Positions 3,990 through 20,000 of a stretch of 20,000 bases of DNA are shown here, one piece after another. The stretch's first letter is position 1, and each line of letters begins with the position of its first letter. The notes under the pieces are model-generated. The model did no database searches. It was not told the origin of the DNA and was given only the letters and a program-made list of their open reading frames with translations. Source of the DNA: an uncultured virus (IMG/VR IMGVR_UViG_3300032167_007427) (Duplodnaviria; Heunggongvirae; Uroviricota; Caudoviricetes); IMG/VR virus record IMGVR_UViG_3300032167_007427; one strand, written 5' to 3'. The position numbers and the translations under genes were made by a program.

Positions 3990-4373
3990 ATGCAAAAAGA
4001 AAATGAAATCATCGCCCTCCAAAAGCAAGGTTATGGCTATAGACGTATTGCTACTATGCTTGAACTTCCGATAAACAAGGTGCGCTATTTTTGCGAAAAG
4101 AATCCTTATAACTCTAATAATAAAAAGTGTCTTAACTGTGGTATCGCAATCAAAAACACACCACATAAACGTGAAAAGAAGTTCTGTTCAGATAAATGCC
4201 GTATGGATTGGTGGAATTCTCACCCTGAACTTGTAAACCGTAAAGCAATGTATCACCTTATCTGTAGCCATTGCGGTAAACCTTTTGATGCCTACGGAAA
4301 GGCAAACAAAAAATACTGTTCTCGTGCTTGTTATGCTGATGCCAGACGTAAAGGAGGAAGCAACAATGAGTGA
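3990..4373 (+). CDS. HTH plus double zinc-finger DNA-binding protein
   Basis: N-terminal sigma-region-4-like HTH (LQKQGYGYRRIATMLELPINKVR) and two CxxC...CSxxC motifs (CLNC...FCSDKC; CSHC...YCSRAC). Confidence 0.75.
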   Translation: MQKENEIIALQKQGYGYRRIATMLELPINKVRYFCEKNPYNSNNKKCLNCGIAIKNTPHKREKKFCSDKCRMDWWNSHPELVNRKAMYHLICSHCGKPFDAYGKANKKYCSRACYADARRKGGSNNE

Positions 4374-4527
4374 TGAACTCTTCCGTCGCATTCTTCTTTA
4401 TAAAACCACAATGGCTACTATCAAGAAAATGCTTGAAAATGGCTTAATTACTCCCGAAGAATACGCCATAATTGACACAAAAATTGCCGAGAAATATGCC
4501 TTAAATTCGTCTGTTATATATCGCTGA
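4366..4527 (+). CDS. SHOCT-domain microprotein, 53 aa
   Basis: ATG 4366 after RBS aaggagg, overlapping the upstream stop. IKKMLENGLITPEEY is a SHOCT signature. Confidence 0.75.
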   Translation: MSDELFRRILLYKTTMATIKKMLENGLITPEEYAIIDTKIAEKYALNSSVIYR

Positions 4528-7472: not shown

Positions 7473-7509
7473 AAAAAGCTCCTGTGCATTTTCACGCAGG
7501 AGCCTTATT
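7473..7509. terminator. Bidirectional terminator between convergent operons
   Basis: AAAAA-GCTCCTGTG-cattttca-CGCAGGAGC-cttatt: hairpin with a T5 tail on the minus strand. Confidence 0.7.
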
Positions 7510-7511
7510 GG

Positions 7512-8447
7512 TTATTCTTCTTCGTCATTGATTAATCCATCAACTCCCTCGGTATCTTCGTCTCCGATAGTATCATCAATGTCATCGACATCATCGAATA
7601 CAATACTCTCGTAGGCATCGTCATCACCAAAGGTTTCATCCGCTACAAACGACATTTCTTTAGCATACAGTTTATTCATAGAAAGGCGTTGCTCAAGGTT
7701 CTTTTTCTTACCGTTATATGCAATTATCATTGCCTCGCAGACACCTAAAGAACCTGGGCGTCGGTCTTTTGCGTTACGCATTAGTTGCTTGATAGATAAT
7801 GCGCCAACCTTATCTTTGAAAATATCTTCATCAAGGCGACCGCGATATGTTACAACAAGCTTGGCGGTGGCATTCAGAATATTTGCTGCAAAAGAGTTGG
7901 AATCGCCCTCCCAGGCTCCAATACAAAGACGAAGAACACGATTCAAGACGTGATACCCGTATTTAGAATATATGGCCTCCAAGGTTGAAACCGCACAGAT
8001 AGAACCTGGTGCTTTCTTACGAGAAATACGTAATCCATACGATTCTACAAGCCCTTTGATTGTAAGTTGGTCATTATTACCCGCCTCTACATTAGCTGTA
8101 AAAACTTCGTGGGGATTTAGGCTTTTTACAAACTTCTGCTGATTTGCAAAAATATCAGCTTCGTGTTCGTAACATAAGTCATCATAAATCATGCACCAAA
8201 CGGGTGTATCTCTCGAGCCTGATACCATTGCTACAATCTCAATGGTGTGCTGACCATTAAAGACGTAGTTTATGCCGTTTCTTCGACTTACTTTTACGGG
8301 ATTAATTTGATAAAGGTCGAAGTTCTCCGCAGCACGAATAACGTGTTGTTCTGAAAGGCTACGCTGATAATCCTGGTTTGACACAAGATTTTTAATTGGG
8401 ATTTTCTCGAAATAGACATTGGGGACAAATTCCATAAATTCATCCAT
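7512..8447 (-). CDS. ParB/Srx-like N-terminal domain protein (DUF6551-like) with acidic tail
   Basis: L-SNQDYQR, NFD----PVKVSRR----YVFNGQHT (DGQHR-like motif), EADIFANQ. The last ~40 aa are mostly Asp/Glu. Confidence 0.7.
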   Translation of the reverse strand: MDEFMEFVPNVYFEKIPIKNLVSNQDYQRSLSEQHVIRAAENFDLYQINPVKVSRRNGINYVFNGQHTIEIVAMVSGSRDTPVWCMIYDDLCYEHEADIFANQQKFVKSLNPHEVFTANVEAGNNDQLTIKGLVESYGLRISRKKAPGSICAVSTLEAIYSKYGYHVLNRVLRLCIGAWEGDSNSFAANILNATAKLVVTYRGRLDEDIFKDKVGALSIKQLMRNAKDRRPGSLGVCEAMIIAYNGKKKNLEQRLSMNKLYAKEMSFVADETFGDDDAYESIVFDDVDDIDDTIGDEDTEGVDGLINDEEE

Positions 8448-9422
8448 TTAATCATCCTCCTCCGCTTTTAACGCCAACTCATATGCGGTATCGGCGAGTT
8501 CGGTCAAAGCCTCTATCAACCGCTTCCGTGCACCCTTTGAAATGATTTCAAAATCAGTATGTTTTTCAGAACGTTTAATAGAGCTTATCCACGAGGGTAT
8601 CGTTAAAGACAGTTCTGTTATGGATGCGTCGGGGTCGAACGCAGGCATTTCCTTTATACTGGTTGCAGTAGTACCGCTTGGTGCATAAGTAGGCTCACTG
8701 CTTTGGGGCCTCTGTGGCTGATTGCCATACTGAAAATACGGTACTTTAGTTGTGCTCATACGATTGTTAATACGAATGAGCTCCTCGGTTGGCTGTTTAG
8801 CCATACCTACAATGGTTGCGTGTGATAACTTGACTCTGCCGGATAGAATCTTTGGAACAAGTTCAGGTACTTTTGAGCCAATAGCTTCAAGTGCTCTTGT
8901 ATAAATAGCATACTTTTCGACCGTACCAAAGGATATATTATTTTCCTCTGCGATTTTTGTAGCAGTTCGATGTCCGGTGCGGTAACCTCGTGCAAATTTA
9001 CCATTTTCATCACGTGTCACCTCTTCTTCAGTTCCACGCACACGTATTATGTATTGGTTTGAGCCTTTGGGATATTTGAGATGGTTAACATATTTCTCCG
9101 TCTCATATTGCATTCCGATTAGAAATTTACGGGCTTCTTCGGTTATATTCTTTCTCTTTAACTGACGCGAACATATCCAAGCAATCGCTTCTTCTTTACA
9201 TGAAAAGTCTAATTCCTCAATTGAAAAAGGAATGCCAAACTTGTGACATATCGCGTAGCGATTATGCCCGTCTATAATAAAGCCATCCCACACAAGTATG
9301 GGTTCTTTACAGCCCTCTGCTTTTATGCTTTGTTCAAGTGTTAAATACTCCTGACGACGCAATGGGCGGATGAGATTTTTGAAATCTCTATCAGTTTTAA
9401 GAGTTATAATTTTATCTTCCAT
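8448..9422 (-). CDS. ParB-like N-terminal domain protein with downstream HTH
   Basis: LEQSIKAEGCKEPILVWDGFIIDGHNRY (ParB/Srx GxxR motif), QLKRKNIT, and TATKIAEENNISFGTVEKY HTH. RBS ggaggg. Confidence 0.75.
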   Translation of the reverse strand: MEDKIITLKTDRDFKNLIRPLRRQEYLTLEQSIKAEGCKEPILVWDGFIIDGHNRYAICHKFGIPFSIEELDFSCKEEAIAWICSRQLKRKNITEEARKFLIGMQYETEKYVNHLKYPKGSNQYIIRVRGTEEEVTRDENGKFARGYRTGHRTATKIAEENNISFGTVEKYAIYTRALEAIGSKVPELVPKILSGRVKLSHATIVGMAKQPTEELIRINNRMSTTKVPYFQYGNQPQRPQSSEPTYAPSGTTATSIKEMPAFDPDASITELSLTIPSWISSIKRSEKHTDFEIISKGARKRLIEALTELADTAYELALKAEEDD

Positions 9423-9431
9423 AGTCCCTCC

Positions 9432-9797
9432 TTATGACTCAATACGCGTGATTGTATCTAAAGAATATACAACCATTTTCTCAGAGGGAATGAATCTTCC
9501 TGTAATACGATAAGAACAATTTTTTTCGAGTTCTCCGGTAACCTCAAGGAGTTTATTCATAAAGGGTTGACTGTATATTTCGTATGAGTTATCTGACTCC
9601 ATTAAATGCTGTTTTACCCGATGAGCATCTTTCTTCGGCGTTGCATTGTCGTGCGCTTTTACAGCCACAAGTCTTTTAACTGGATTCACCAACAAGTCAA
9701 GATATTTTGGATCGCCAACGGCTCGTATAGTGGATTTATGTATTCGTATGCGGGACTTTTTTAAATCGAATGACATTGTTTCTATATTATCTGACAT
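9432..9797 (-). CDS. Hypothetical protein: minimal stand-alone domain X (121 aa)
   Basis: RBS ggagg; TAATG overlap with the upstream gene. IRIHKSTIRAVG-PKYLDLLVNPVKRLVAVK and YRITG match the LSR3 C-terminal domain. Confidence 0.75.
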   Translation of the reverse strand: MSDNIETMSFDLKKSRIRIHKSTIRAVGDPKYLDLLVNPVKRLVAVKAHDNATPKKDAHRVKQHLMESDNSYEIYSQPFMNKLLEVTGELEKNCSYRITGRFIPSEKMVVYSLDTITRIES

Positions 9798-10558
9798 TAA
9801 TTTGTACCTCCCTCTGTTTCGGATGCGCCGTCAGTTTCAGTCGCATCTCCTTCTTTTTCGTTTTCTTTAACCGCTATAATCGCATAACCGTCAAATATAT
9901 TAATCTGCATTGATTGACGGTGTTCGTTGTACGACAAACCAAACTGATCCTGCCATTCTGCCGGGAATACGGGTGTTCTTGATGTTCTTGGTTTCTGACC
10001 TTCCGTAAAAGTACGCTGATACACCTCGGTAGCCGTCAGGTCAAACGCCAGCAAATATTCATCATTAGCGTGTATAAGCTTTCCGAGTAGCTTGTACCTA
10101 TAATCAGGATTCCACTCCATCATTGTAACCACCTTTGCAAAAAACAGCTTGCAAGTAATCGGCTTCGGTTTGCGTTTTCCTTTATTTGTAGTACTGCACC
10201 ATTGAAAAGAGTCTCGCGCTCCTTCCGGGCAGGGACGAAGAGCGAGTATCTTCTTTTGACGGTTAATAAGCACCTGGGCATAATCCGATGTTGGGAATTT
10301 TGCAAGACAAGCGGTATTAACTTGAAACTTACAATTATTAAAGGTTACTGATGGTTCTCTTAAATGGGCAAAAAACTCACGACGCACTACCTGGAAACCA
10401 TCAAAATCAAAGTCTTCTCCAAGTTCAAAAAGTTCATCGTGTTTGCCGAGCACAAGTGTTGCGTCTGCTGAATCGTTTTCTGTTGTAGGTATATCACCCG
10501 GTTCTTCAACAGATTTCAACAGTTGAGCCAGCGTATTATTTCCGTTATTGTCATTCAT
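9797..10558 (-). CDS. Hypothetical protein carrying domain X, paralogous to the LSR3 C-terminus
   Basis: DFDFDGFQVVRREFF...P-VTF...LIN...ILALR...WNPDYRYKLLG...AFD...PAEW---FG--Y--H-Q aligns with LSR3. RBS aggagg; start abuts the LSR3 stop. Confidence 0.8.
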   Translation of the reverse strand: MNDNNGNNTLAQLLKSVEEPGDIPTTENDSADATLVLGKHDELFELGEDFDFDGFQVVRREFFAHLREPSVTFNNCKFQVNTACLAKFPTSDYAQVLINRQKKILALRPCPEGARDSFQWCSTTNKGKRKPKPITCKLFFAKVVTMMEWNPDYRYKLLGKLIHANDEYLLAFDLTATEVYQRTFTEGQKPRTSRTPVFPAEWQDQFGLSYNEHRQSMQINIFDGYAIIAVKENEKEGDATETDGASETEGGTN

Positions 10559-12454
10559 TTAGTTTACCTCCTGTGGGGACACCGCACTCAACTCACTTTT
10601 AATATAAAGCCTTAAGTCCTCATATCCGGTTACATTCAGCTTTTTACCGGTTTCGTATAGCTGTCCCTCAATACGTAGTTTCCACTCATCTTCGCTTTGA
10701 GCTTCAAGTTCTGCCAGGGTTTGTTCATGCAAATAGTATTGTTTACCGAAATTTGCTGTCCACTCTTTGGGTATACCTCTTATGAGTTTACCTGAGGGCA
10801 TAAAAGGTTGAACTGTTGGCTCTTTGCCGTCTTCTGATGTATGCCCCGGCAGTACATAAGGTTTGAAGAATGCCTCCGTATTTACGGTATCAAAAATATA
10901 AGCAACCTCGGAATCCTGCTCGTACAAAGAACCTGTTATACGGTATTTATAATCAGAGTTCCAACCGAATATCGAAAAGAGAGTTTCACTAAAGGCGGCG
11001 GTAGATATATCTTTAGGAACATAGTTTCCACCCTCGTTATTTGAGCAGATTACTCCTTGTCGGTTATCTTTATCGGTAGTTCGTATAGCGAACATTCGTG
11101 TAATAGGATTAACAAGAAACTCAACTGTGTTTTTCGCACCGAGCTTTCGAGTCACGGTTTTACTGAATTTGATTTTTTTATGCATAAACGTCACAAATGG
11201 TTTCTGCTGTGTATCAAAAAGTTCCGCACGTGCTATTTCAAATCCTCTCATATCGAAGTCACCTGCTTCAACCTCTATCTGTATTTCTTTCGGTTCACTT
11301 GATGAAACAGAAGCTTCATTATCTGTTTGTGCATATATACTCTGTGCTGCTTGGAAATAATCTTGCTCACCAAAAGCTGCCCAACGTGGGTTGATTACAA
11401 CAAATCCTTTCAGTATTCCGCTATCAAGCACTCGAAGTTCAGGCAAGTAGGACTTATTCTTGAACCTCGCATTATCGAGCATTCGTTGTACGGCTATAAA
11501 ATCATCCCTTGAAACAATAGCTTCGTGATGATTAAAATAATGGCTTTGCGGACGATCTCCTCGATTTTTTACAGATTTATGAGTACGAAAGTTCGGTGTG
11601 AATGTTTTTCTTGTCAACACATCACCACAATGCCTTTCATTACGCAAAATCTGCACTATGCTACTCGACGTCCACTTGATATTCCCAAGATAGGATTTGC
11701 GACCGAGAGCGATTAACGCATCTGCTATTTGCTGCGTTGAATAGCCGTAGAGATACATATAAAATACAAGTTTGACCGTTGGGGCCTCGTCAGGGTTAAT
11801 GATAAGCCCTCCTTCGGAATCGTGTTTGAATCCGAGAAGTTTGGGAGTCAGAGGGATACCGTTATCAAGACGCATACGTAGCGATGTTTCCATACTACGG
11901 CTTCGTGTATGCGATTCTTCCTCCGCCATTGTTGCGACAAAGGAAAGTGCCATAGCAGAGTCATCATTCAAGGAGAAAATACATTCTGACTCGAAGAACA
12001 CACCTACCGGGTGCTTCAGTTCGGCAAGTTCACGTACAATACCGATACTTACAAGGATGTTTCTTGCCAAACGTGATACGCTTTTCGTTATTATCAAGTC
12101 AATTTTTCCTGCTCGGCAATCAGCCAGCATCTTCATACATTCCGCACGATTTTCAAGCATAGTACCGCTGATACCCTCATCGGCATAAATCTTAACAAGG
12201 GTCCAATGCGGGTGATGCTTTACAAAATCCTCATAGTATCTTTTTTGGAGTTCGTATGAAGTAGTTTGCCTTACATCATCGGTAGATACGCGAACATAGA
12301 TAGCAACACGCATTGGTGTTTCATTATCATAATAGTCGACCCTTTTCTTTTCCGGTATATATTCATAATTTTCCGGGTCAACCTGTACGTGCATTCGTCT
12401 GCGAGTACGTTCACGTTCTTGTTCTTTTTGGGTCTTCCTACTGTTATCAATCAT
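10559..12454 (-). CDS. Large serine recombinase 3 with atypical C-terminal domain (no zinc ribbon)
   Basis: IYVRVSTDD catalytic motif, DEGISG, ITKSVSRLARN, ILRNERHCGD and HEAIVSRDDF. No CxxC zinc ribbon follows; domain X is found instead (~10721-11275). Confidence 0.9.
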   Translation of the reverse strand: MIDNSRKTQKEQERERTRRRMHVQVDPENYEYIPEKKRVDYYDNETPMRVAIYVRVSTDDVRQTTSYELQKRYYEDFVKHHPHWTLVKIYADEGISGTMLENRAECMKMLADCRAGKIDLIITKSVSRLARNILVSIGIVRELAELKHPVGVFFESECIFSLNDDSAMALSFVATMAEEESHTRSRSMETSLRMRLDNGIPLTPKLLGFKHDSEGGLIINPDEAPTVKLVFYMYLYGYSTQQIADALIALGRKSYLGNIKWTSSSIVQILRNERHCGDVLTRKTFTPNFRTHKSVKNRGDRPQSHYFNHHEAIVSRDDFIAVQRMLDNARFKNKSYLPELRVLDSGILKGFVVINPRWAAFGEQDYFQAAQSIYAQTDNEASVSSSEPKEIQIEVEAGDFDMRGFEIARAELFDTQQKPFVTFMHKKIKFSKTVTRKLGAKNTVEFLVNPITRMFAIRTTDKDNRQGVICSNNEGGNYVPKDISTAAFSETLFSIFGWNSDYKYRITGSLYEQDSEVAYIFDTVNTEAFFKPYVLPGHTSEDGKEPTVQPFMPSGKLIRGIPKEWTANFGKQYYLHEQTLAELEAQSEDEWKLRIEGQLYETGKKLNVTGYEDLRLYIKSELSAVSPQEVN

Positions 12455-13052
12455 GCAATGCCCCCTTTAACTCTTCTTCGCTATCGGGTAACAACTCCCA
12501 ACCGGGATACGGTAAGAAGAAAGAGTCTTTATTATCGTTCTGATAATACGATGCCAATGTGAAGATGTCCTCTGAAATAAAGTAAATACCAATTGGGTGT
12601 TTCTGCTTTGCAAGTATTCTCGAACAGAAAGTAACCTCGTGTATTTTCTTTGATACATTTGAGACTTTTTGCGTAATGATGAGATCCACTTTGCCTTCCA
12701 TAGCATCTGTCAAAAGCCTACTCCATTCGGGAGCATTCTCCATATTAGGTGCTGTAGCTCCCTCATCAATATAAAAGTCAACAAGAGTCCATTTTGGACA
12801 TAATGCAATGGTATCCGCAAACTGTTTTTTGTGATAAGAAAGGTAGTTGTCATATTTCGTCTGATTAAAGTAACGAATATAAATACCTACCTTAAACGGC
12901 ACATTAGTCGCAGGACGTTCACGACGGATACTACCAAGCCAAGCTTTATGCTGTGCTATTTGAATTGCACGGTCAGAGTCGTCTCCAAAGGTTACTGCAA
13001 ACGTGGGCGTTGCAATAGCACTCAATTGATTAAATACTTCTATTTCGTCCAT
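12447..13052 (-). CDS. Resolvase-domain-only protein lacking catalytic residues (pseudo-recombinase), 201 aa
   Basis: Start reassigned to ATG 13052 (RBS ggagg). KVGIYIRYFN, WTLVDFYIDEG, GKVDLIITQKVSNVS and KHPIGIYFISEDIFTL align with LSR3's N-terminal domain, but RVST is RYFN and SRLAR is SNVSK. Confidence 0.8.
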   Translation of the reverse strand: MDEIEVFNQLSAIATPTFAVTFGDDSDRAIQIAQHKAWLGSIRRERPATNVPFKVGIYIRYFNQTKYDNYLSYHKKQFADTIALCPKWTLVDFYIDEGATAPNMENAPEWSRLLTDAMEGKVDLIITQKVSNVSKKIHEVTFCSRILAKQKHPIGIYFISEDIFTLASYYQNDNKDSFFLPYPGWELLPDSEEELKGALHD

Positions 13053-13081
13053 AGTTACCTCCGATTGTATCTTTCTGACCA

Positions 13082-13143
13082 ATTATATCGCCAATCGGGT
13101 AACAATAAAAGTTACCCACAGTCAGGTCGGTGACTGTAGGTAA
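13082..13143 (-). promoter_or_regulatory. Promoter/operator region of the minus-strand recombinase operon
   Basis: Minus-strand TATAAT at 13082-13087 with a poor -35. Overlapping inverted repeats GGGTAAC-N7-GTTACCC (13097-13117) and TTACCCACAGTCA-N6-TGACTGTAGGTAA (13112-13143). Confidence 0.55.
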
Positions 13144-13174: not shown

Positions 13175-13204
13175 AAAAAAGAGTGGAAATTCTCATCTCC
13201 ACTC
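13175..13204 (-). terminator. Rho-independent terminator of the leftward XRE gene
   Basis: Minus strand GAGTGGAGAT-GAGA-ATTTCCACTC-TTTTTT, overlapping the stop codon. Confidence 0.8.
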
Positions 13205-13559
13205 ATTCTTCGGTATTTCTTTTTGCTTGTAACGATATTTTAACTTCTTTTGATATTTTCATAATCGCTTCAATCTCGGAGGGGGTACAGTCCGCAAGAA
13301 GCTGTGCATACTCGCTTTGATACAAATCGTTAACTTCGGGGACATTCGGTCGAAGGATAGAATCCGCGGAAACCTGCAAAGCCTCAACAATTTTAACAAA
13401 GGTTGCAAGCCACATTTTTGTTTTTCCAAGTTCTATATCGCTGATGTTTGAGGTTGCAAGGTGTGCTGCAAAACCAAGGTCAGCCTGGCTCATTCCTTTA
13501 GATATGCGAATGGCACGGATACGTTCTCCGATTGCTACATAATCAAATTTCTTTTCCAT
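13203..13559 (-). CDS. XRE-family HTH transcriptional regulator (118 aa)
   Basis: Start reassigned to ATG 13559 (RBS gaggtg). IGERIRAIRISKGMSQADL...ISDIELGK...LQVSADSIL. Confidence 0.9.
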   Translation of the reverse strand: MEKKFDYVAIGERIRAIRISKGMSQADLGFAAHLATSNISDIELGKTKMWLATFVKIVEALQVSADSILRPNVPEVNDLYQSEYAQLLADCTPSEIEAIMKISKEVKISLQAKRNTEE

Positions 13560-13572
13560 TCGCTCACCTCGT

Positions 13573-13666
13573 TTCCCCGATTGGGTATCATTTATGCATA
13601 TTTTATCACCGATAAGGTAACTACAAAATAGCGAGGTCGCTATATTCATAGTTGATGAGGTATAAT
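13573..13666. promoter_or_regulatory. Divergent promoter region with operator-like sites
   Basis: 17-mers TTCCCCGATTGGGTATC (13573-13589) and ATCACCGATAAGGTAAC (13605-13621), perfect inverted repeat ATAGCGA-gg-TCGCTAT (13628-13643), and plus-strand TATAAT (13661-13666). Confidence 0.55.
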
Positions 13667-13698: not shown

Positions 13699-14058
13699 AT
13701 GTCACTTAACTACCTTATCATCGGAAAACGAATCAAAGAAGCAAGAAAGAAAAAACATCTTTCACAGGCACAACTATGTGAACGGGTCGATTTATCAGAC
13801 GGATATATCAGTTACATAGAAACCGCAACAAAGTGTGTCAGTCTTGATGTTCTTGTTCGTATTGCTAATGTACTCGAAGTTACCGCAGACGAGCTTCTTG
13901 CAGAGAATTTACTGACCACCAGACAGGCTAACCTTAATGGTGAATTCAGCGATCTGCTCGGTGATTGTAATGCTTACGAAAGGAGAGTGCTTATTGAAAT
14001 AACAAGAGCAACAAAACAGATCTTACGTGAAAATAAACAATTGCATTTGTCGAAGTAA
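13699..14058 (+). CDS. XRE-family HTH transcriptional regulator
   Basis: RBS aggagg. IGKRIKEARKKKHLSQAQL...YISYIE...IANVLEVTADELL. Confidence 0.92.
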   Translation: MSLNYLIIGKRIKEARKKKHLSQAQLCERVDLSDGYISYIETATKCVSLDVLVRIANVLEVTADELLAENLLTTRQANLNGEFSDLLGDCNAYERRVLIEITRATKQILRENKQLHLSK

Positions 14059-14243: not shown

Positions 14244-14954
14244 ATGATATACATAACAGGCGATATCCACGGAACTCCCCGGCGCGTGGTAAACTTCGCA
14301 AAAGACGTCCACATTTCACGTAATGATACACTTATAATTCTTGGTGATGTGGGTGCTAATTATTATTTGAACGAACTCGATGAAGAATGCAAACGGCTGT
14401 TAAACTCAATTAAATGTACCGTTTTTTGTATTCACGGCAATCACGAATGCCGTCCTGAACATATACCTGGTTATCACCTTACCGATTGGTGTGGTGGTAA
14501 GGTGTGGATTGAGGACGAATATCCACGTATCCTTTTTGCCAAAGATGGTGAAATCTACGATATCGAGGGACAGAGGTTCCTTGTCATCGGTGGTGCTTAC
14601 AGTATAGATGCTTCTTGGCGTATACGTCGTCACGCAGGATGGTGGAGCGATGAGCAACCTTCGGATATCATCAAAGCCTTCGTAGAAACACAGATTGCTA
14701 ATCACAAATTTGATATTATACTCACCCATACTTGCCCACGAAAATATGAGCCCGTAGAGGTTTTCTTGCCAAACGTAGACCAATCTAACGTTGATAAAAG
14801 CACCGAAGATTGGCTCGACCGTATAGAGGAACAAATCGACTATAAGGCTTGGTACTGCGGTCATTGGCATACCGATAAGAGGATAGATAGGATGCACTTC
14901 TTATTTACATCGTGGGAAACCATAGAAAAGGAGGATAGCGATGAAACATTTTAA
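14244..14954 (+). CDS. Calcineurin-like metallophosphoesterase (I)
   Basis: All five motifs present: GDIHG, LGDVG, HGNHE, THT, CGHWH. Confidence 0.92.
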   Translation: MIYITGDIHGTPRRVVNFAKDVHISRNDTLIILGDVGANYYLNELDEECKRLLNSIKCTVFCIHGNHECRPEHIPGYHLTDWCGGKVWIEDEYPRILFAKDGEIYDIEGQRFLVIGGAYSIDASWRIRRHAGWWSDEQPSDIIKAFVETQIANHKFDIILTHTCPRKYEPVEVFLPNVDQSNVDKSTEDWLDRIEEQIDYKAWYCGHWHTDKRIDRMHFLFTSWETIEKEDSDETF

Positions 14955-15387
14955 TTGTTTACAGCCGACAGAAACAATGGAAAGGATCTCCCGAGAGGTT
15001 TTTTGCGGTAACCTTGATGAATTACTTGATAAAGTTAATAAAGAAAACATCGGTTATGTCATTACCAATGAGGGTAAGGATGATTTAGTTCTTTGCCCTG
15101 CAAAATGGTTTGATATTTGCTACGACGATGATTTTGGTTGCGTCATTAACTCTGCTGTTCGATATGCTATAGGTCGTAATACTTATATGCCTGATGTTGT
15201 AGTCCGATTCGTGTTCAAATATCTCCCGGTTCTCGATACTCGCACACTCTCCGTAATAAAAAAAGATATCGAACCTTATCTTGAAGACGAGAATTTGCCG
15301 TACAGAGCTACCTGGTTAACACTAAAGTTTGCTGTAAGTGACCGATTGCTGCAAATACAAAACAAGGATAAAACTGAAAATGCATGA
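14941..15387 (+). CDS. Phd/YefM-like N-terminal domain fused to a phage-type helical domain
   Basis: ISREVFCGNLDELLDKVNKENIGYVITNEGKDDLVLCP follows the Phd/YefM pattern. C-terminal SAVRYAIGRNTYMP domain. RBS aggagg. Confidence 0.55.
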   Translation: MKHFNCLQPTETMERISREVFCGNLDELLDKVNKENIGYVITNEGKDDLVLCPAKWFDICYDDDFGCVINSAVRYAIGRNTYMPDVVVRFVFKYLPVLDTRTLSVIKKDIEPYLEDENLPYRATWLTLKFAVSDRLLQIQNKDKTENA

Positions 15388-16006
15388 AAAGTATTATATC
15401 TTGAACCTTTGGGACTACGGAACCCCGGCATACTGCTCCTATAGCAAAATGTATATTGGGACCGAAGCGGAAATACGAACAGCGATAGAGGCAATGAAAA
15501 AAGAAGATAAAAATTCTGAAACAGTAGTTGCAGTTGAACGCTATCTTTCGGGGGATAAGACCTCCACGCACAATATTGCTTATCACGAAATTCCTGCTTT
15601 GGAGCCGTGTTCACTTGTTGCTTCATCATCCCTCTCTCTTGGCGAATACTCATGGGAACACATCAATGTATGGGGATTTCCGTACATAATGAAATGCGAT
15701 TCTGCCGAAGTAAAACAAATCATTATCAAATATAAAAGAAGGTACTATCGCTGTGTCCGTGCTTGGTTTAATAACCTATGCTACGAATCGGTTTCAGGAC
15801 GATGGTCTCCGATGGGGAATTTTTATCTTGGCCCCGCATATCTCTTTGATGTTGTAAAGGCCCCCGGTAAACCTCGAATAATGAATAATCTCCTATATGT
15901 AGTTGAAACAGAGTATGATGATTTACAGAAAACCGATGATGAAATCCTTTCAATAGAACACTTAAATTTCAAAGGCTTCTGCGATGACATATTTGCTGAT
16001 GGTTAA
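15380..16006 (+). CDS. Hypothetical protein (208 aa)
   Basis: ATG 15380 overlaps the upstream stop, consistent with coupling. No recognisable motif. Confidence 0.65.
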   Translation: MHEKYYILNLWDYGTPAYCSYSKMYIGTEAEIRTAIEAMKKEDKNSETVVAVERYLSGDKTSTHNIAYHEIPALEPCSLVASSSLSLGEYSWEHINVWGFPYIMKCDSAEVKQIIIKYKRRYYRCVRAWFNNLCYESVSGRWSPMGNFYLGPAYLFDVVKAPGKPRIMNNLLYVVETEYDDLQKTDDEILSIEHLNFKGFCDDIFADG

Positions 16007-16017
16007 TGGAGGAGTGT

Positions 16018-16155
16018 ATGATAAAAGGTTCTTATACAAGAGATTTTTATATCCTTCCTACTGTAATCATCCACAATGGTGACGGGATTTATACTACCTT
16101 TGAGCTTGCTTGGCTTAAATGGTATGTTGGCTTTATTCGGCATAAAAAGGAGTGA
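16018..16155 (+). CDS. Small hypothetical protein, 45 aa (not in the ORF track)
   Basis: RBS ggagga 4 nt before the ATG. Translates as MIKGSYTRDFYILPTVIIHNGDGIYTTFELAWLKWYVGFIRHKKE*. Fills the gap, and its end overlaps the next gene's RBS. Confidence 0.7.
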   Translation: MIKGSYTRDFYILPTVIIHNGDGIYTTFELAWLKWYVGFIRHKKE

Positions 16156-16160
16156 AATAT

Positions 16161-16874
16161 ATGACTTATGTTCTTTCGGATATTCACGGTAATATGTCCA
16201 ACTTCAAATCAATACTCACACAGATTAATCTTCAACCGGAGGATACTCTATATATTCTTGGTGATGTTATCGACCGATACCCCGATGGTATCCGTATCAT
16301 ACGAATGATAATGACAATGCCCAACGTAAAAATGCTCCTCGGTAATCACGAGCATATGATGCTTCAGACACTAACCACACCCCAACCTGAATTTATAAAC
16401 AAGTGGGAACGTGAATTTTGTCTTTGGTATCGTAATGGCGGTGCCGTTACTCACGAATATTTAAAGCATATACGGAAAGTACAGCGGCAAGAAGTGTTTG
16501 ATTTTCTTAAGGGATTACCCGTCAACTTAGACGTCGAAGTTAACGGTATCAAATACAAGCTTGTTCACGGCTCACCGGTTGAGAATTTCAAAGCTCATTG
16601 GCGTGAATACGCTTCTCCTGAAGAGTTTGCGGTTTGGGAACGTTGGGATCAATATCAGCCTATACCCGAAGGATACACACTCGTATTCGGTCATACGCCT
16701 ACCGTACAGTTTCAATACGAAACTCCTCTGAAAATATGGTTCGGTGATAATGCTATCGGAATTGATTGTGGTGGTGGTTTCTCGGAAAGAAAAAACACCT
16801 ACCACTATAAGGGCAGGCTTGCGTGTTTACGGCTGGATGATATGAAAGAGTTTTACTCCGATACAAAAATATAA
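16161..16874 (+). CDS. Metallophosphoesterase (II), PPP/PphA/lambda-NinI-like Ser/Thr phosphatase type
   Basis: SDIHG, LGDVIDR, LGNHE, W-RNGG, VHG, FGHTP, IGIDCG and LACLRLDD. ATG 16161 fits RBS aaggag better than GTG 16152. Confidence 0.9.
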   Translation: MTYVLSDIHGNMSNFKSILTQINLQPEDTLYILGDVIDRYPDGIRIIRMIMTMPNVKMLLGNHEHMMLQTLTTPQPEFINKWEREFCLWYRNGGAVTHEYLKHIRKVQRQEVFDFLKGLPVNLDVEVNGIKYKLVHGSPVENFKAHWREYASPEEFAVWERWDQYQPIPEGYTLVFGHTPTVQFQYETPLKIWFGDNAIGIDCGGGFSERKNTYHYKGRLACLRLDDMKEFYSDTKI

Positions 16875-16885
16875 AACGAAAGAAG

Positions 16886-18148
16886 GTGAAATTTTTGTAC
16901 GCACCACAATTTGACAATTACATATGGGGCCTTGGAATAAGCCACCGAGGCTATAATAGTGGCGATGTGTATACTGATGAAGCATACCCAATCATTGATG
17001 AAATAATGGCTTTGCTTAAACAGATAACCCCGTGCTATGAAAATGGCTGTCGTGAACTTTGGTTTTGCGTTGAACGAGGCCCCATTGAAGCATATGGTAA
17101 CTACGAAGAACAGCTCGAAGATGGAGATGTTGAGAATTACGAGGAGTTTGTTTCTAATTGGGAACGTGACTATCCCGATGATGAAAAGTGGTATCGCTTC
17201 TACGGACTTGAAACCGATGAAAAATATCAGGCAATCTCCATTAATTACAATTGTGTTATCGAGGTTAGTCCTTATAAGGAGCGAAATGGTTTTCCGTATG
17301 ACGTAACGGAGTTTGTTTCGTTTATAAAAGATAAAGTGATGTTCTGCATACAACAAATCAAGGACGGAATCTACATGGATTATATCCGCCCTCGTATACC
17401 GGATACTCATAAAACAGGTACAATTCTGCAACGGTATTTATGGGAGATTTATCCCGAAAGCAAGACGTCATATTTCGATGGAATAACCGATGCGGACATA
17501 GAAGATTTCTTCACCTATATGTCGCAGCAAGACCATAAAGATTACAAACCCAAGCAACGACTCTCTCATATGACTGCTAACGACTTTTATCGCTATTGTG
17601 CCATTGGGTATAAGGCTATGGGATATGACGGTTGTGAGTTACCCCTTCGTAAGCAGTACGAGAAGCACGCTGACGGGAGAGACGAAGGTCTTGAGGACAT
17701 AGACCCCACTTCACCCGAAGCGTTTCGAGAATGGCTTGTAGAGGGTCGTAAGAGAGGCGGTCACCCTTGGGAAGTTTGCCGTGGCGGTAATTCCACTCAT
17801 ATAGCTCTGTATGTAGGCTTGGATGATGATGGCTATTATCTTAGGCTTGCGGGTTCATCCTATGGAAGAAGCGCCGAAACCATCAAATTCTATCTTGCTT
17901 TACGCAGAAATGGTGTTCCGGTGTATTTGAGCGATGGTGATCATCTTGCCGAGCGTGTACGGGGTGAAGAAAAAGTCGGCATAGTTCCTCAAGGAATTAT
18001 CCCCAAGTATCGTCATAGTGACTTTCCCAATGAGGATATTATATCCTTTTCTAATCTGCCGTATGAAAACCCGGAAGTTGTGGCTTCTCGTTGTGTATGG
18101 CAGGAAATAAAAGAAGTAAAGCTTATCGAGGAGGGGTGTAATGGGTAA
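16886..18148 (+). CDS. Hypothetical protein (420 aa)
   Basis: Long ORF with GTG start, overlapping the next gene by 8 nt. Motif-like segments HADGRDEGL and GGHPWEVCRGGNSTHI. Confidence 0.75.
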   Translation: MKFLYAPQFDNYIWGLGISHRGYNSGDVYTDEAYPIIDEIMALLKQITPCYENGCRELWFCVERGPIEAYGNYEEQLEDGDVENYEEFVSNWERDYPDDEKWYRFYGLETDEKYQAISINYNCVIEVSPYKERNGFPYDVTEFVSFIKDKVMFCIQQIKDGIYMDYIRPRIPDTHKTGTILQRYLWEIYPESKTSYFDGITDADIEDFFTYMSQQDHKDYKPKQRLSHMTANDFYRYCAIGYKAMGYDGCELPLRKQYEKHADGRDEGLEDIDPTSPEAFREWLVEGRKRGGHPWEVCRGGNSTHIALYVGLDDDGYYLRLAGSSYGRSAETIKFYLALRRNGVPVYLSDGDHLAERVRGEEKVGIVPQGIIPKYRHSDFPNEDIISFSNLPYENPEVVASRCVWQEIKEVKLIEEGCNG

Positions 18149-18758
18149 GATATTCTTTACAGCCGATACCCACTTCGGTCATGAAAATGCGATAGGCTTT
18201 GATAACCGTCCGTTTGCTTCCGTTGAGGAAATGGACGAGGAGCTTATCAGACGATGGAACAACAAGGTGGGGAAAGGTGATCTGGTCTACGTTCTCGGCG
18301 ATATGATATGGAAAACACATAATGATGATGCCCCCACACTCATTAAAAAGCTCAATGGTCAAATCATTTTGATTAAGGGAAATCACGACCGTTTTCTTCA
18401 TAATGCAAAGGCTAAGAATGCTCTTGCCGGGGTAAAAGATTACGACGACATTTGTGTAACTCTCGAGGACGGTACAACACGTAGAGTTATCCTTTCACAC
18501 TTTTATATGCCGTTCTATGTAGGGCATCGCTATCAAGCCATTCACCTTCACGGTCATTCGCACAACAGCGAGGAGTGTATGCAGGAAGAACTTATAAAGC
18601 GTACTCTCGTAGCCAACGGCTTTGAGACCCGTGCCTACAACGTCGGCTGTATGCATTGGGACTACGAACCGGTCACCCTTGATGAAATATTACGCTATGA
18701 GGATATGATTACAATGGCAGAGGGGTATTTGAAAGAGATATCCGAAAAAGAAATCTAA
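18141..18758 (+). CDS. Metallophosphoesterase (III), AQ1575/phage phosphoesterase-like
   Basis: ADTHFGH-N, RPF-SVEEMDEELI-RWN, LGDM, KGNHD, SHF, LHGHSH and YNVGC. Confidence 0.9.
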   Translation: MGKIFFTADTHFGHENAIGFDNRPFASVEEMDEELIRRWNNKVGKGDLVYVLGDMIWKTHNDDAPTLIKKLNGQIILIKGNHDRFLHNAKAKNALAGVKDYDDICVTLEDGTTRRVILSHFYMPFYVGHRYQAIHLHGHSHNSEECMQEELIKRTLVANGFETRAYNVGCMHWDYEPVTLDEILRYEDMITMAEGYLKEISEKEI

Positions 18759-18767
18759 TGGAAAACG

Positions 18768-18811
18768 AAAAGTGGCAGGGACTTCAATTCGCGTCCTTGC
18801 CACTATTTTTT
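18768..18811. terminator. Bidirectional terminator
   Basis: aaa-AGTGGCAGGGAC-N10-GTCCTTGCCACT-atttttt between convergent stops. Confidence 0.8.
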
Positions 18812-20000
18812 ATTTCTTTTTGAACGTATGATATTCAATTATAATTTCAACATCATAGTCGAACACACTGTTTTTCTTGAACGGATATACATTCCCTATA
18901 GTAATCTTCTCAACCGAGCCATCCTTCTTTATCCAGCCAGTTACAAGATCTCTGATTGGGCGTTCGTATATTTCCGTAAATCCGAGTTCTTGCAGTTTAT
19001 CACCCGCGTCCACATAACTAAACCTCCTGAGCTCTCTTTCAGAAAACGGAATCGTAATTTCACGTTTAACGTGGTATGTTATGATTATTTCTGCATCATA
19101 AGGAATCATATCGCCCTCAACAAAATAAGAGCTACCCAATATTACAATTTGCTCAACTTGTCCGACCTTATAAGATGAGCCGACGCATATATCTTTTATC
19201 GGGATTATCTTAATGTTGTTGAATGCAAGATTATGTAATTTAGTCTGAACCTCTTCAACGTCCTTACCGAGCAATTCATCATAACGATATTTCATTCTTA
19301 TCTTTTTGCGTTTGAAAAAGAATGCTTTTAATCTTTGCTTGAAGAGCTCCCCGTCAGAGAGTTTTTGTTCTTTTTTTATACCGTCTGTTTTGGCAGTATA
19401 ATTGTTGGATGATTTACTTTTTGATGATGACGAAGTTGTATACGTATATGTTGATGCTCGGCTACTGTCTGTATAACTGCTTCTTGTTGTACTGTAAGCT
19501 TCATCGGCATCTTCGTCGTCTTCAATTATTTCATATGGTTCTGAAGAATAATCATGATGCAAGCGTGCACCACATTCGGTGCAGGTCCACCCGTCTTCGT
19601 ATTCATTAAAACAAGATTGCTCACTCAAATCCGCACCACAGCCGGGGCATTCAAATTTGTCTTCGTCATCGACCTCGTCCTCGACAATCGAATAATCTTC
19701 AAAACTATAATTACGATGTAATTTTGCACCGCATTCGGTACACTCCCAGTCATCTTCGTAACCGCAATACAACCATTGTTTTTTTATGTTAGCATTACAA
19801 TTGGGGCATAATACTCTGTTGTTATAATCATCCTCGGAGTCGTAAATTTCATCGTCATTAATTGGGTTAGTATGATAGCATTCGGTACACGTCCAACTTC
19901 CGCAACTATCTGAAAAACCGGATTGTTTATTTAGTAAAGCCCCGCAACTGTCGCAGTACCAAGCCACTCCCTCAAATGTATCACCGTCATATACGTCATC
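18810..20000 (-). CDS. Zinc-ribbon-repeat protein with two C-terminal PASTA-like repeats, probably 5'-truncated
   Basis: Frame is open to the window edge (DDVYDGDTFEG-VAWYC). Three CxxC-x16-W-CTEC repeats, a Ser/Thr linker, and two ~75-aa repeats ending IITYH / IIEYH. Confidence 0.7.
   Translation of the reverse strand, partial: DDVYDGDTFEGVAWYCDSCGALLNKQSGFSDSCGSWTCTECYHTNPINDDEIYDSEDDYNNRVLCPNCNANIKKQWLYCGYEDDWECTECGAKLHRNYSFEDYSIVEDEVDDEDKFECPGCGADLSEQSCFNEYEDGWTCTECGARLHHDYSSEPYEIIEDDEDADEAYSTTRSSYTDSSRASTYTYTTSSSSKSKSSNNYTAKTDGIKKEQKLSDGELFKQRLKAFFFKRKKIRMKYRYDELLGKDVEEVQTKLHNLAFNNIKIIPIKDICVGSSYKVGQVEQIVILGSSYFVEGDMIPYDAEIIITYHVKREITIPFSERELRRFSYVDAGDKLQELGFTEIYERPIRDLVTGWIKKDGSVEKITIGNVYPFKKNSVFDYDVEIIIEYHTFKKK

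Follow-up and report, generated by a model that had tools for sequence, protein, structure and literature searches.

The 20,000-nucleotide stretch analyzed here (hereafter the window), from an uncultured Caudoviricetes virus (IMG/VR record IMGVR_UViG_3300032167_007427), carries six minus-strand open reading frames, A to F in reading order, at positions 7512-13052 (Table 1). These encode a large serine recombinase (LSR), B, a catalytically dead paralogue of its catalytic domain, A, two free copies, C and D, of a domain X found in the C-terminal part of B, and two ParB-fold proteins, E and F. We lean towards the view, while giving it a little under an even chance, that this module is a second, accessory-gated serine recombination and control system in Clostridial prophages and integrative and conjugative elements (ICEs) that insert at tRNA 3' ends. 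The six-gene cassette of these gut Clostridia elements may represent an undescribed way to control the excised state.

Serine integrases are key tools for genome engineering, and are believed to owe their direction and specificity to a zinc ribbon, a coiled coil and a small partner protein. The zinc ribbon and coiled coil of ordinary LSRs read the outer part of the attachment (att) sequence and set synapsis and direction. The lineage described here is widespread and has swapped both parts for a new domain, also encoded as free subunits, accompanied by a dead paralogue and two ParB-fold proteins. With its defined set of genes, candidate DNA sites and one element of known bounds, the module lends itself to asking if a ParB-type nucleotide switch can gate recombination.

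Composition of the module

B matches the Pfam Resolvase (E 1.8e-21) and Recombinase (PF07508, E 2.5e-21, residues 221-327) families, and residues R55, S57, S127, R128 and R131 are invariant in 60 sequences, consistent with the catalytically intact LSR proposed in the sequence-only reading of this DNA. The Pfam scan found no zinc-ribbon (PF13408) match in B, unlike L1 and L2, the tandem LSR pair in the same window. B has a single cysteine after residue 335 and its structural model shows no long helix after residue 330; domain X, at residues ~400-535, occupies the place of the zinc ribbon and coiled coil. The best Foldseek matches of the model were serine integrase complexes (E 2e-13), over the N-terminal half. 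The catalytic domain is the best conserved part of B, with a mean column identity of 0.85 versus 0.66 for X. At two loci (L117, L137) another LSR gene of the same orientation truncates B or directly precedes it, which points to insertions into the module.

The C-terminal part of B matches both C (E 5e-22) and D (E 9e-10) by BLASTP, in agreement with the earlier proposal of two free copies of this domain. C and D gave no BLASTP match to each other and were linked by profile-profile comparison (hhalign 95%, E 3.6e-8). C has 2149 relatives at 90% clustering and no Pfam, NCBIfam, PHROG or PADLOC family, and a search for longer X-bearing proteins returned B-like LSRs and single-sequence oddities (15 matches among 7,999 scored). 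D is the fastest-evolving of the six genes (median identity 36%). Its model has a pLDDT of 90.9, and residues 420-530 of B have the same order of strands and helices. The best solved structural match of D is MraZ (1n0e; Z 4.3, root-mean-square deviation 3.8, 90 residues aligned), followed by B3 domains (Z 2.2-2.9), with a protein from an archaeon that we take to be AbrB-like among the weaker matches. By its model, domain X could be called weakly MraZ/B3-like; these scores are in the range of common arrangements and come with no sequence match. Foldseek returned no match for D in the PDB at E<=0.001 and only uncharacterised phage proteins among viral models (BFVD; best TM score 0.70), and PDB sequence searches with D, E and F gave nothing credible. 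In two distant versions of the module (L487, L489) three free X genes follow B and ParB-fold genes are absent.

A matches Pfam Resolvase at E 4.9e-5 and lacks the nucleophile serine. It shares 38% identity with the catalytic domain of B over 117 amino acids, compared with 28-32% for other LSRs, and has its own set of residues invariant in 65 sequences (R60, N63, Q64, T65, T127, Q128, K129, N132). These features bear out the description of A as a dead copy of the catalytic domain standing beside B. Some ICEs carry a second, unrelated dead resolvase-like gene before their LSR triplet (L170:14953-15507 in G002, also in G004), which had no BLASTP match to A.

F matches Pfam DUF6551 (E 2.7e-30) and a PHROG ParB-like profile (E 3.8e-16). 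E has a weak PHROG ParB-like match (E 4e-4), no Pfam ParB_N match was found among 60 E sequences, and Atlas language-model features place E in a ParB_N cluster at 0.96. Two ParB/Srx-fold proteins had been predicted from the sequence: the assignment of F is firm, while E is placed there by the weak profile and the language-model features. At the position of the Box II GxxR-type motif, E has D51-G52-H53-N54-R55, conserved at 85-100% with arginine in 95% of sequences, and F has an invariant G65-Q66-H67-T68 with no arginine at that place. Read by eye, E probably carries a central helix-turn-helix (HTH). None of the 19 window proteins scanned matched ParA, as previously noted, and the gene order H-A-B-C-D-E-F leaves no adjacent parA; E and F are not a ParABS partition system.

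Conservation, element context and ends

Alignment of relatives of C gave 213 GTDB loci, of which the best 80 of 213 were used, and 123 IMG/VR loci, with the best 80 of 123 used; the IMG/VR set is redundant, with 59 loci left at 90% identity in B. The six genes occur in order in 64 of 65 GTDB and 53 of 54 IMG/VR loci with enough flanking sequence on both sides. C is present in 11/164 and 21/351 genomes of two bacterial families. Against two close relatives, nonsynonymous differences (pN 0.07-0.20) are far fewer than synonymous ones (pS 0.68-0.93) in each gene, and by this measure all six are under purifying selection. Divergence of B tracks that of A, C, D, E and F (Mantel rho 0.52-0.71), whereas the comparison of B with the nearest convergent LSR gave a rho of 0.03 over 35 loci of mixed LSR classes and that of F with the LSR gave 0.17. 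These results support the view of the six genes as one conserved, co-evolving unit.

A divergent sample comprised nine more distant loci and six loci without A, from phage records and genomes, some on short contigs. A was not detected in position at any of these 15 loci and D was missing in three of them. Since A is not detected in the distant lineages, and D or E/F are missing in some of them, the constant core is B and at least one free X. The check for six-gene synteny that had been suggested for this module thus showed a well-kept order but not an obligate set.

The module was found in prophages, four Ca. Heliusvirales records among them, and also in ICEs that carry VirB4, MobL and VirD4. 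It is usually convergent to an LSR pair or triplet (34/49 GTDB and 45/48 IMG/VR loci), with an HTH gene upstream (61/62 and 49/50) and metallophosphoesterase cargo between the module and the element end (44/53 and 42/42). In the window this cargo consists of three calcineurin-like metallophosphoesterase genes and unknown genes; it is recurrent but shuffled. A strain variant has deletions in the cargo (14928-15363 and 16192-18422) and still carries the phage genes and the module on one contig. At L048 (G029:C92:101000-116000) the module, HTH pair and cargo lie between the lysin gene and the LSR pair, not after the pair. Arrays of 8 to >20 tRNA genes are found just downstream of the module at L012:13540-14275, L119 and L043. 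The rumA gene near two loci was considered as a module associate and rejected, as it belongs to separate neighboring elements.

Most of the 11 mapped genomes have a tRNA (Met, Tyr, Ser or Ala) whose 3' end points towards the far end of the element, and a common end motif starts 8 bp past its CCA. At other loci, end motifs of this kind were seen after tRNA-Met, Ser, Ala, Leu, Gln and Arg, including places beside module-less LSR pairs; used by itself, the 16-bp end matrix is noisy, with 20 matches in 1.42 Mb of shuffled DNA. One module-bearing element was delimited by comparing filled and empty loci, a comparison proposed earlier as a way to find att sites, and its sites are not assignable to B. 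This element (G005:C3:383871-472444) is an 88.6-kb ICE at the CCA end of tRNA-Tyr, with the module ~7 kb inside the element end. Of nine relative loci examined, three (L251, L252, L255) are empty sites that set its bounds, with tRNA-Tyr joined directly to the sequence following G005 position 383,871, 88.6 kb away. The junctions have only four bases in common, centred on the last two of CCA, and the ends are symmetric inverted arms. Judged from these sequences, the ends have a serine-type attP layout, and the element is an example of serine-type integration at the CCA end of a tRNA. In this ICE and in G002, the end motif is present once more 111-125 bp inside the module-side end, resembling an accessory site (G005:C3:384002, G002:C1:266850).

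Other elements were less informative. G002 showed matching inverted repeats only and its relatives yielded no empty site. A far-end candidate in G030 was ruled out, as seven relatives are collinear across this place and no tRNA is found there. G030 also contains, at L212:3874-5778, a YodL-like domain fused to an LSR without the catalytic motif, probably a remnant of a large deletion in an ICE. End candidates in G029 were confirmed in none of seven relative loci, and the left one is without a full tRNA. No tRNA 3'-end duplication spanning a module-bearing element was found; such duplications in G031 and G003 bound short stretches not reaching the module. GenBank Ca. Heliusvirales records are linear and trimmed, and were therefore uninformative as a source of ends. 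Within the window there is no end signature upstream of B; we did not find the ends of the element to which the window belongs, and the virus record nearest to it stops at 13045.

Possible function and competing explanations

An unseeded motif search identified a 31-bp imperfect palindrome, which in 25 of 53 non-redundant loci lies no more than 200 bp downstream of F (log-likelihood 455, compared with 91 and 180 for shuffled sequences). The 159 module loci (2.43 Mb) contain 59 distinct sites, distributed over 95 of the loci, and the 150 module-less loci with L2-type LSRs (1.72 Mb) contain none; 39 of the sites are in the training position and 20 elsewhere. When matrices trained on half of the data were applied to held-out sequence, 8-12 of 41 test windows matched versus 0 of 103 control windows. 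By these counts the palindrome is specific to module loci. The sites are mostly intergenic, often 22-57 bp before an LSR start. Copies within an element are identical or nearly so, as in G002, G004 and G005, where they are found ~230-260 bp inward from the tRNA end and close to where the LSR triplet starts.

In the explanation that we favor, integration at the tRNA would be carried out by the ordinary LSR pair or triplet, while the module would govern the excised state, in which the circle could be resolved or held and its re-entry licensed. The X domains of B, C and D would assemble together on DNA and assume the tasks of site recognition and synapsis, and B would cut only in the assembled complex, like resolvases with accessory sites. 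A could pair with the catalytic domain of B as an inhibitor or gate, and E and F could act as nucleotide-binding ParB-fold switches or clamps loading at the palindrome. The module may also help to repress the integrase operon. We infer one complex and nucleotide gating. As for the specific picture of a nucleotide-gated multi-subunit machine, in which ParB-fold clamps at the palindrome license X-scaffolded recombination by B, C, D and A through a switch driven by cytidine or adenosine triphosphate (CTP/ATP), with no zinc ribbon, coiled coil or directionality factor, in elements entering several tRNA genes via a 2-bp crossover at the CCA end, we regard it as rather doubtful.

Several observations weigh against an accessory-gated recombination system. 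We identified no DNA substrate of B, and the contigs of four DNA sequencing runs contained no joint indicative of excision or inversion. E and F are missing beside B-C in three of the nine distant loci, and in a fourth they lie beyond an LSR triplet. The structure search with D gave nothing at Z >= 5 among 48,161 chains; with a top match at Z 4.3, the likeness of X to MraZ and B3 domains is a lead only. There is no copy of the palindrome in the window, none was found in intergenic positions of the A-less loci, and palindrome sequence did not co-vary with any single protein (partial correlations <=0.13), so that no binder can be named. The odd length of the palindrome is more in keeping with an operator than with a 2-bp crossover site. 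Palindrome copies near the LSR start were found in 20 of 57 ICE-type loci and in 0 of 22 phage-type loci. Seven of eight genomes with the ICE LSR triplet also had C, and no module-less ICE control was found. Given this confinement to ICE-type loci and the missing control, an ICE regulator could be the binder.

The intergenic position of most palindromes, often shortly before an LSR start, also favors a central-control regulon of the KorB-KorA kind. E/F clamps at palindromes would be locked at promoters by the X proteins, silencing integrase and transfer operons, and catalysis by B would be secondary, for instance a rarely used switch. KorB is known to serve in partition as well, together with IncC. 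The precedent in the accessible text of PMC11790492, the orphan ParB-fold nature of E and F, and the modelled resemblance of X to MraZ/AbrB/B3 DNA-binding barrels all agree with such a regulon. It remains a questionable explanation, since it does not account for the dead A or for the catalytic domain being the best conserved part of B, and since the constant core is B with X rather than E/F. A different role for B would be as the integrase or excisionase of the tRNA CCA site, alone or with the LSR pair or triplet, with X recognizing different tRNA genes. Jointly acting serine recombinases are known in CcrA and CcrB. Module-bearing phages and ICEs have a common end motif despite differing neighbor LSRs. 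Within the 120 kb of G030 that were scanned, B is the sole intact serine recombinase; the second one is the fusion without catalytic motif. The closest relatives of L2 and of the LSR triplet (T1) mostly carry the module, which also weighs against integration by ordinary LSRs. Yet G030 has the look of a decayed ICE, and the far end proposed for it did not hold up. Among 75 L2-type LSR loci with >=3 kb of downstream sequence (of 160 fetched), 69 are without the module, and the tRNA-end signature stands beside L2 in two genomes with no C found, G091 and G106, and was recognized by eye in the fragments L287 and L392, all of these being incomplete assemblies. Because the same end signature occurs at module-less loci, B is probably not the primary integrase, and we consider this role unlikely. 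Targeted integration or excision by B, which the sequence-only reading had put forward, is accordingly the weaker reading. The simplest reading of these loci is that ordinary LSRs integrate and B does something else, with L1/L2 as the probable primary integrase of the window prophage.

It is also conceivable, at a still lower probability, that the module, HTH pair and cargo form a self-mobile cassette, a satellite or a cis-mobilised unit, accreting at phage and ICE ends by means of B. The missing co-divergence with the nearest LSR, the position of the cassette on the other side of L1/L2 in G029 and its occurrence in unrelated element types are what one would expect of such a cassette. However, the distance from F to the next LSR is often only 1-50 bp, leaving little room for an att site, and palindrome copies of the element's own variant lie far outside the cassette. 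The strain variant, moreover, keeps phage genes and module together while its cargo varies. The suggestion that the recombinase has been repurposed for anti-phage defence, or for anti-defence, found no support in our data and seems very improbable. Restriction and RloB/AAA genes are often nearby and F has a faint DGQHR-family match (E 5e-4), but PADLOC 2.0 gave none at E<0.001 for the six proteins (one at 0.007, for E), no nuclease or toxin domain was found, and the module is regularly located beside the recombination end and not in the variable cargo.

Known systems and layout of the window

B resembles LSRs of the SPbeta, Bxb1, phiC31 and A118/LI types in its catalytic and recombinase domains, with intact motifs, but differs from them in having X instead of the zinc ribbon and coiled coil and in being encoded together with a dead paralogue, free X and two ParB-fold genes; no small directionality factor was identified. 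Several serine recombinase genes near an element end and short direct repeats of 2-8 bp are features shared with CcrA/CcrB. The same is true of streptococcal ICE serine integrase triplets, which, in the part of PMC4701971 consulted, target mutT, traG or hsdM and nearly all have zinc ribbons, with no mention of X or ParB partners. In contrast, the pairs and triplets described here adjoin the module, and at least one element lies at a tRNA CCA end. KorB-KorA of plasmid RK2, as far as the consulted part of PMC11790492 goes, is alike in combining a ParB-family protein, dispersed palindromes and a small DNA-binding partner on a mobile element. The KorB operon, however, is without a recombinase, X is unrelated to KorA, and clamp behavior of E and F is only proposed. 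Orphan ParB-CTPase-fold proteins with DUF6551 have the domain, the phage setting and the lack of ParA in common with the module, and two phage DUF6551 fusions bound CTP and ATP (10.1101/2025.10.10.680097). The portion of this source available to us reports nucleotide binding only, and its main text has 0 occurrences of "recombinase" and of "integrase"; the module gives DUF6551 a genomic context.

We found no description of the module in the literature, in line with the earlier statement that no characterised system of such composition is known; this search left out supplements, and members may be listed among the LSRs tabulated for PMC10083194 or the proteins tabulated for the ParB paper. In the text that was accessible, "integrase" and "recombinase" have 0 occurrences in PMC11283538 and PMC9226167, and "tRNA" has 0 in PMC10083194.

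Table 1. Coordinates of the module and neighboring features in the window.
Feature	Position	Strand	Description
A	12447-13052	-	201 aa from ATG; catalytically dead serine-recombinase catalytic domain, paralogue of that of B
B	10559-12454	-	631 aa; large serine recombinase, catalytic and recombinase domains followed by domain X
C	9797-10558	-	253 aa; free X copy, flanking segments as in B
D	9432-9797	-	121 aa; minimal free X domain, modelled as a beta-barrel
E	8448-9422	-	324 aa; ParB/Srx-fold protein
F	7512-8447	-	311 aa; DUF6551 ParB-fold protein, variable acidic tail
Upstream control region	13061-13137	-	-10 hexamer, three 7-bp inverted-repeat pairs, conserved operator-like motif
Hairpin between F and convergent LSR	7478-7503		Terminator-like, listed for the + strand only
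Divergent XRE-type HTH gene pair	13203-13649 / 13699-14058	- / +	From domain search; regular module companion
Tandem LSR pair L1/L2	4587-7461	+	Zinc ribbons in both (PF13408); adjoins the module, no part of it
Metallophosphoesterase-rich variable cargo	14244-18758	+	Right of the HTH pair

The open reading frame listing and the sequence confirm the near-zero spacing of the six genes reported before, with coordinates and junctions matching. From A to F, the junctions are an 8-nt overlap, abutting genes, a 1-nt overlap, a 9-nt gap and again abutting genes, and this spacing suggests that the module is co-transcribed. Upstream of A, the -10 hexamer (13082-13087) is indeed flanked by inverted repeats, with 7-bp arms at 13061-13067 and 13092-13098, and two further 7-bp inverted-repeat pairs lie just upstream of these arms. 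A sigma-70 promoter scan found no full promoter upstream of A. The operator-like motif 5' of A (13101-13124) is conserved in 47 of 54 non-redundant loci and is present in the window. A terminator had also been reported at the end of the module; a hairpin is present there, although the terminator-like call is for the + strand only, and it is probably shared by F and the convergent LSR.

Read from translations, the left part of the window contains prophage tail and lysis genes. An HTH/treble-clef gene and a SHOCT gene (3990-4527) lie directly 5' of L1/L2 and are the usual lead-in of this type of LSR pair at many loci. At the other side of the window, a 385-aa minus-strand protein (18810-19967), possibly at or beyond the element end, has repeated CxxC zinc ribbons and a Ser/Thr-rich linker.

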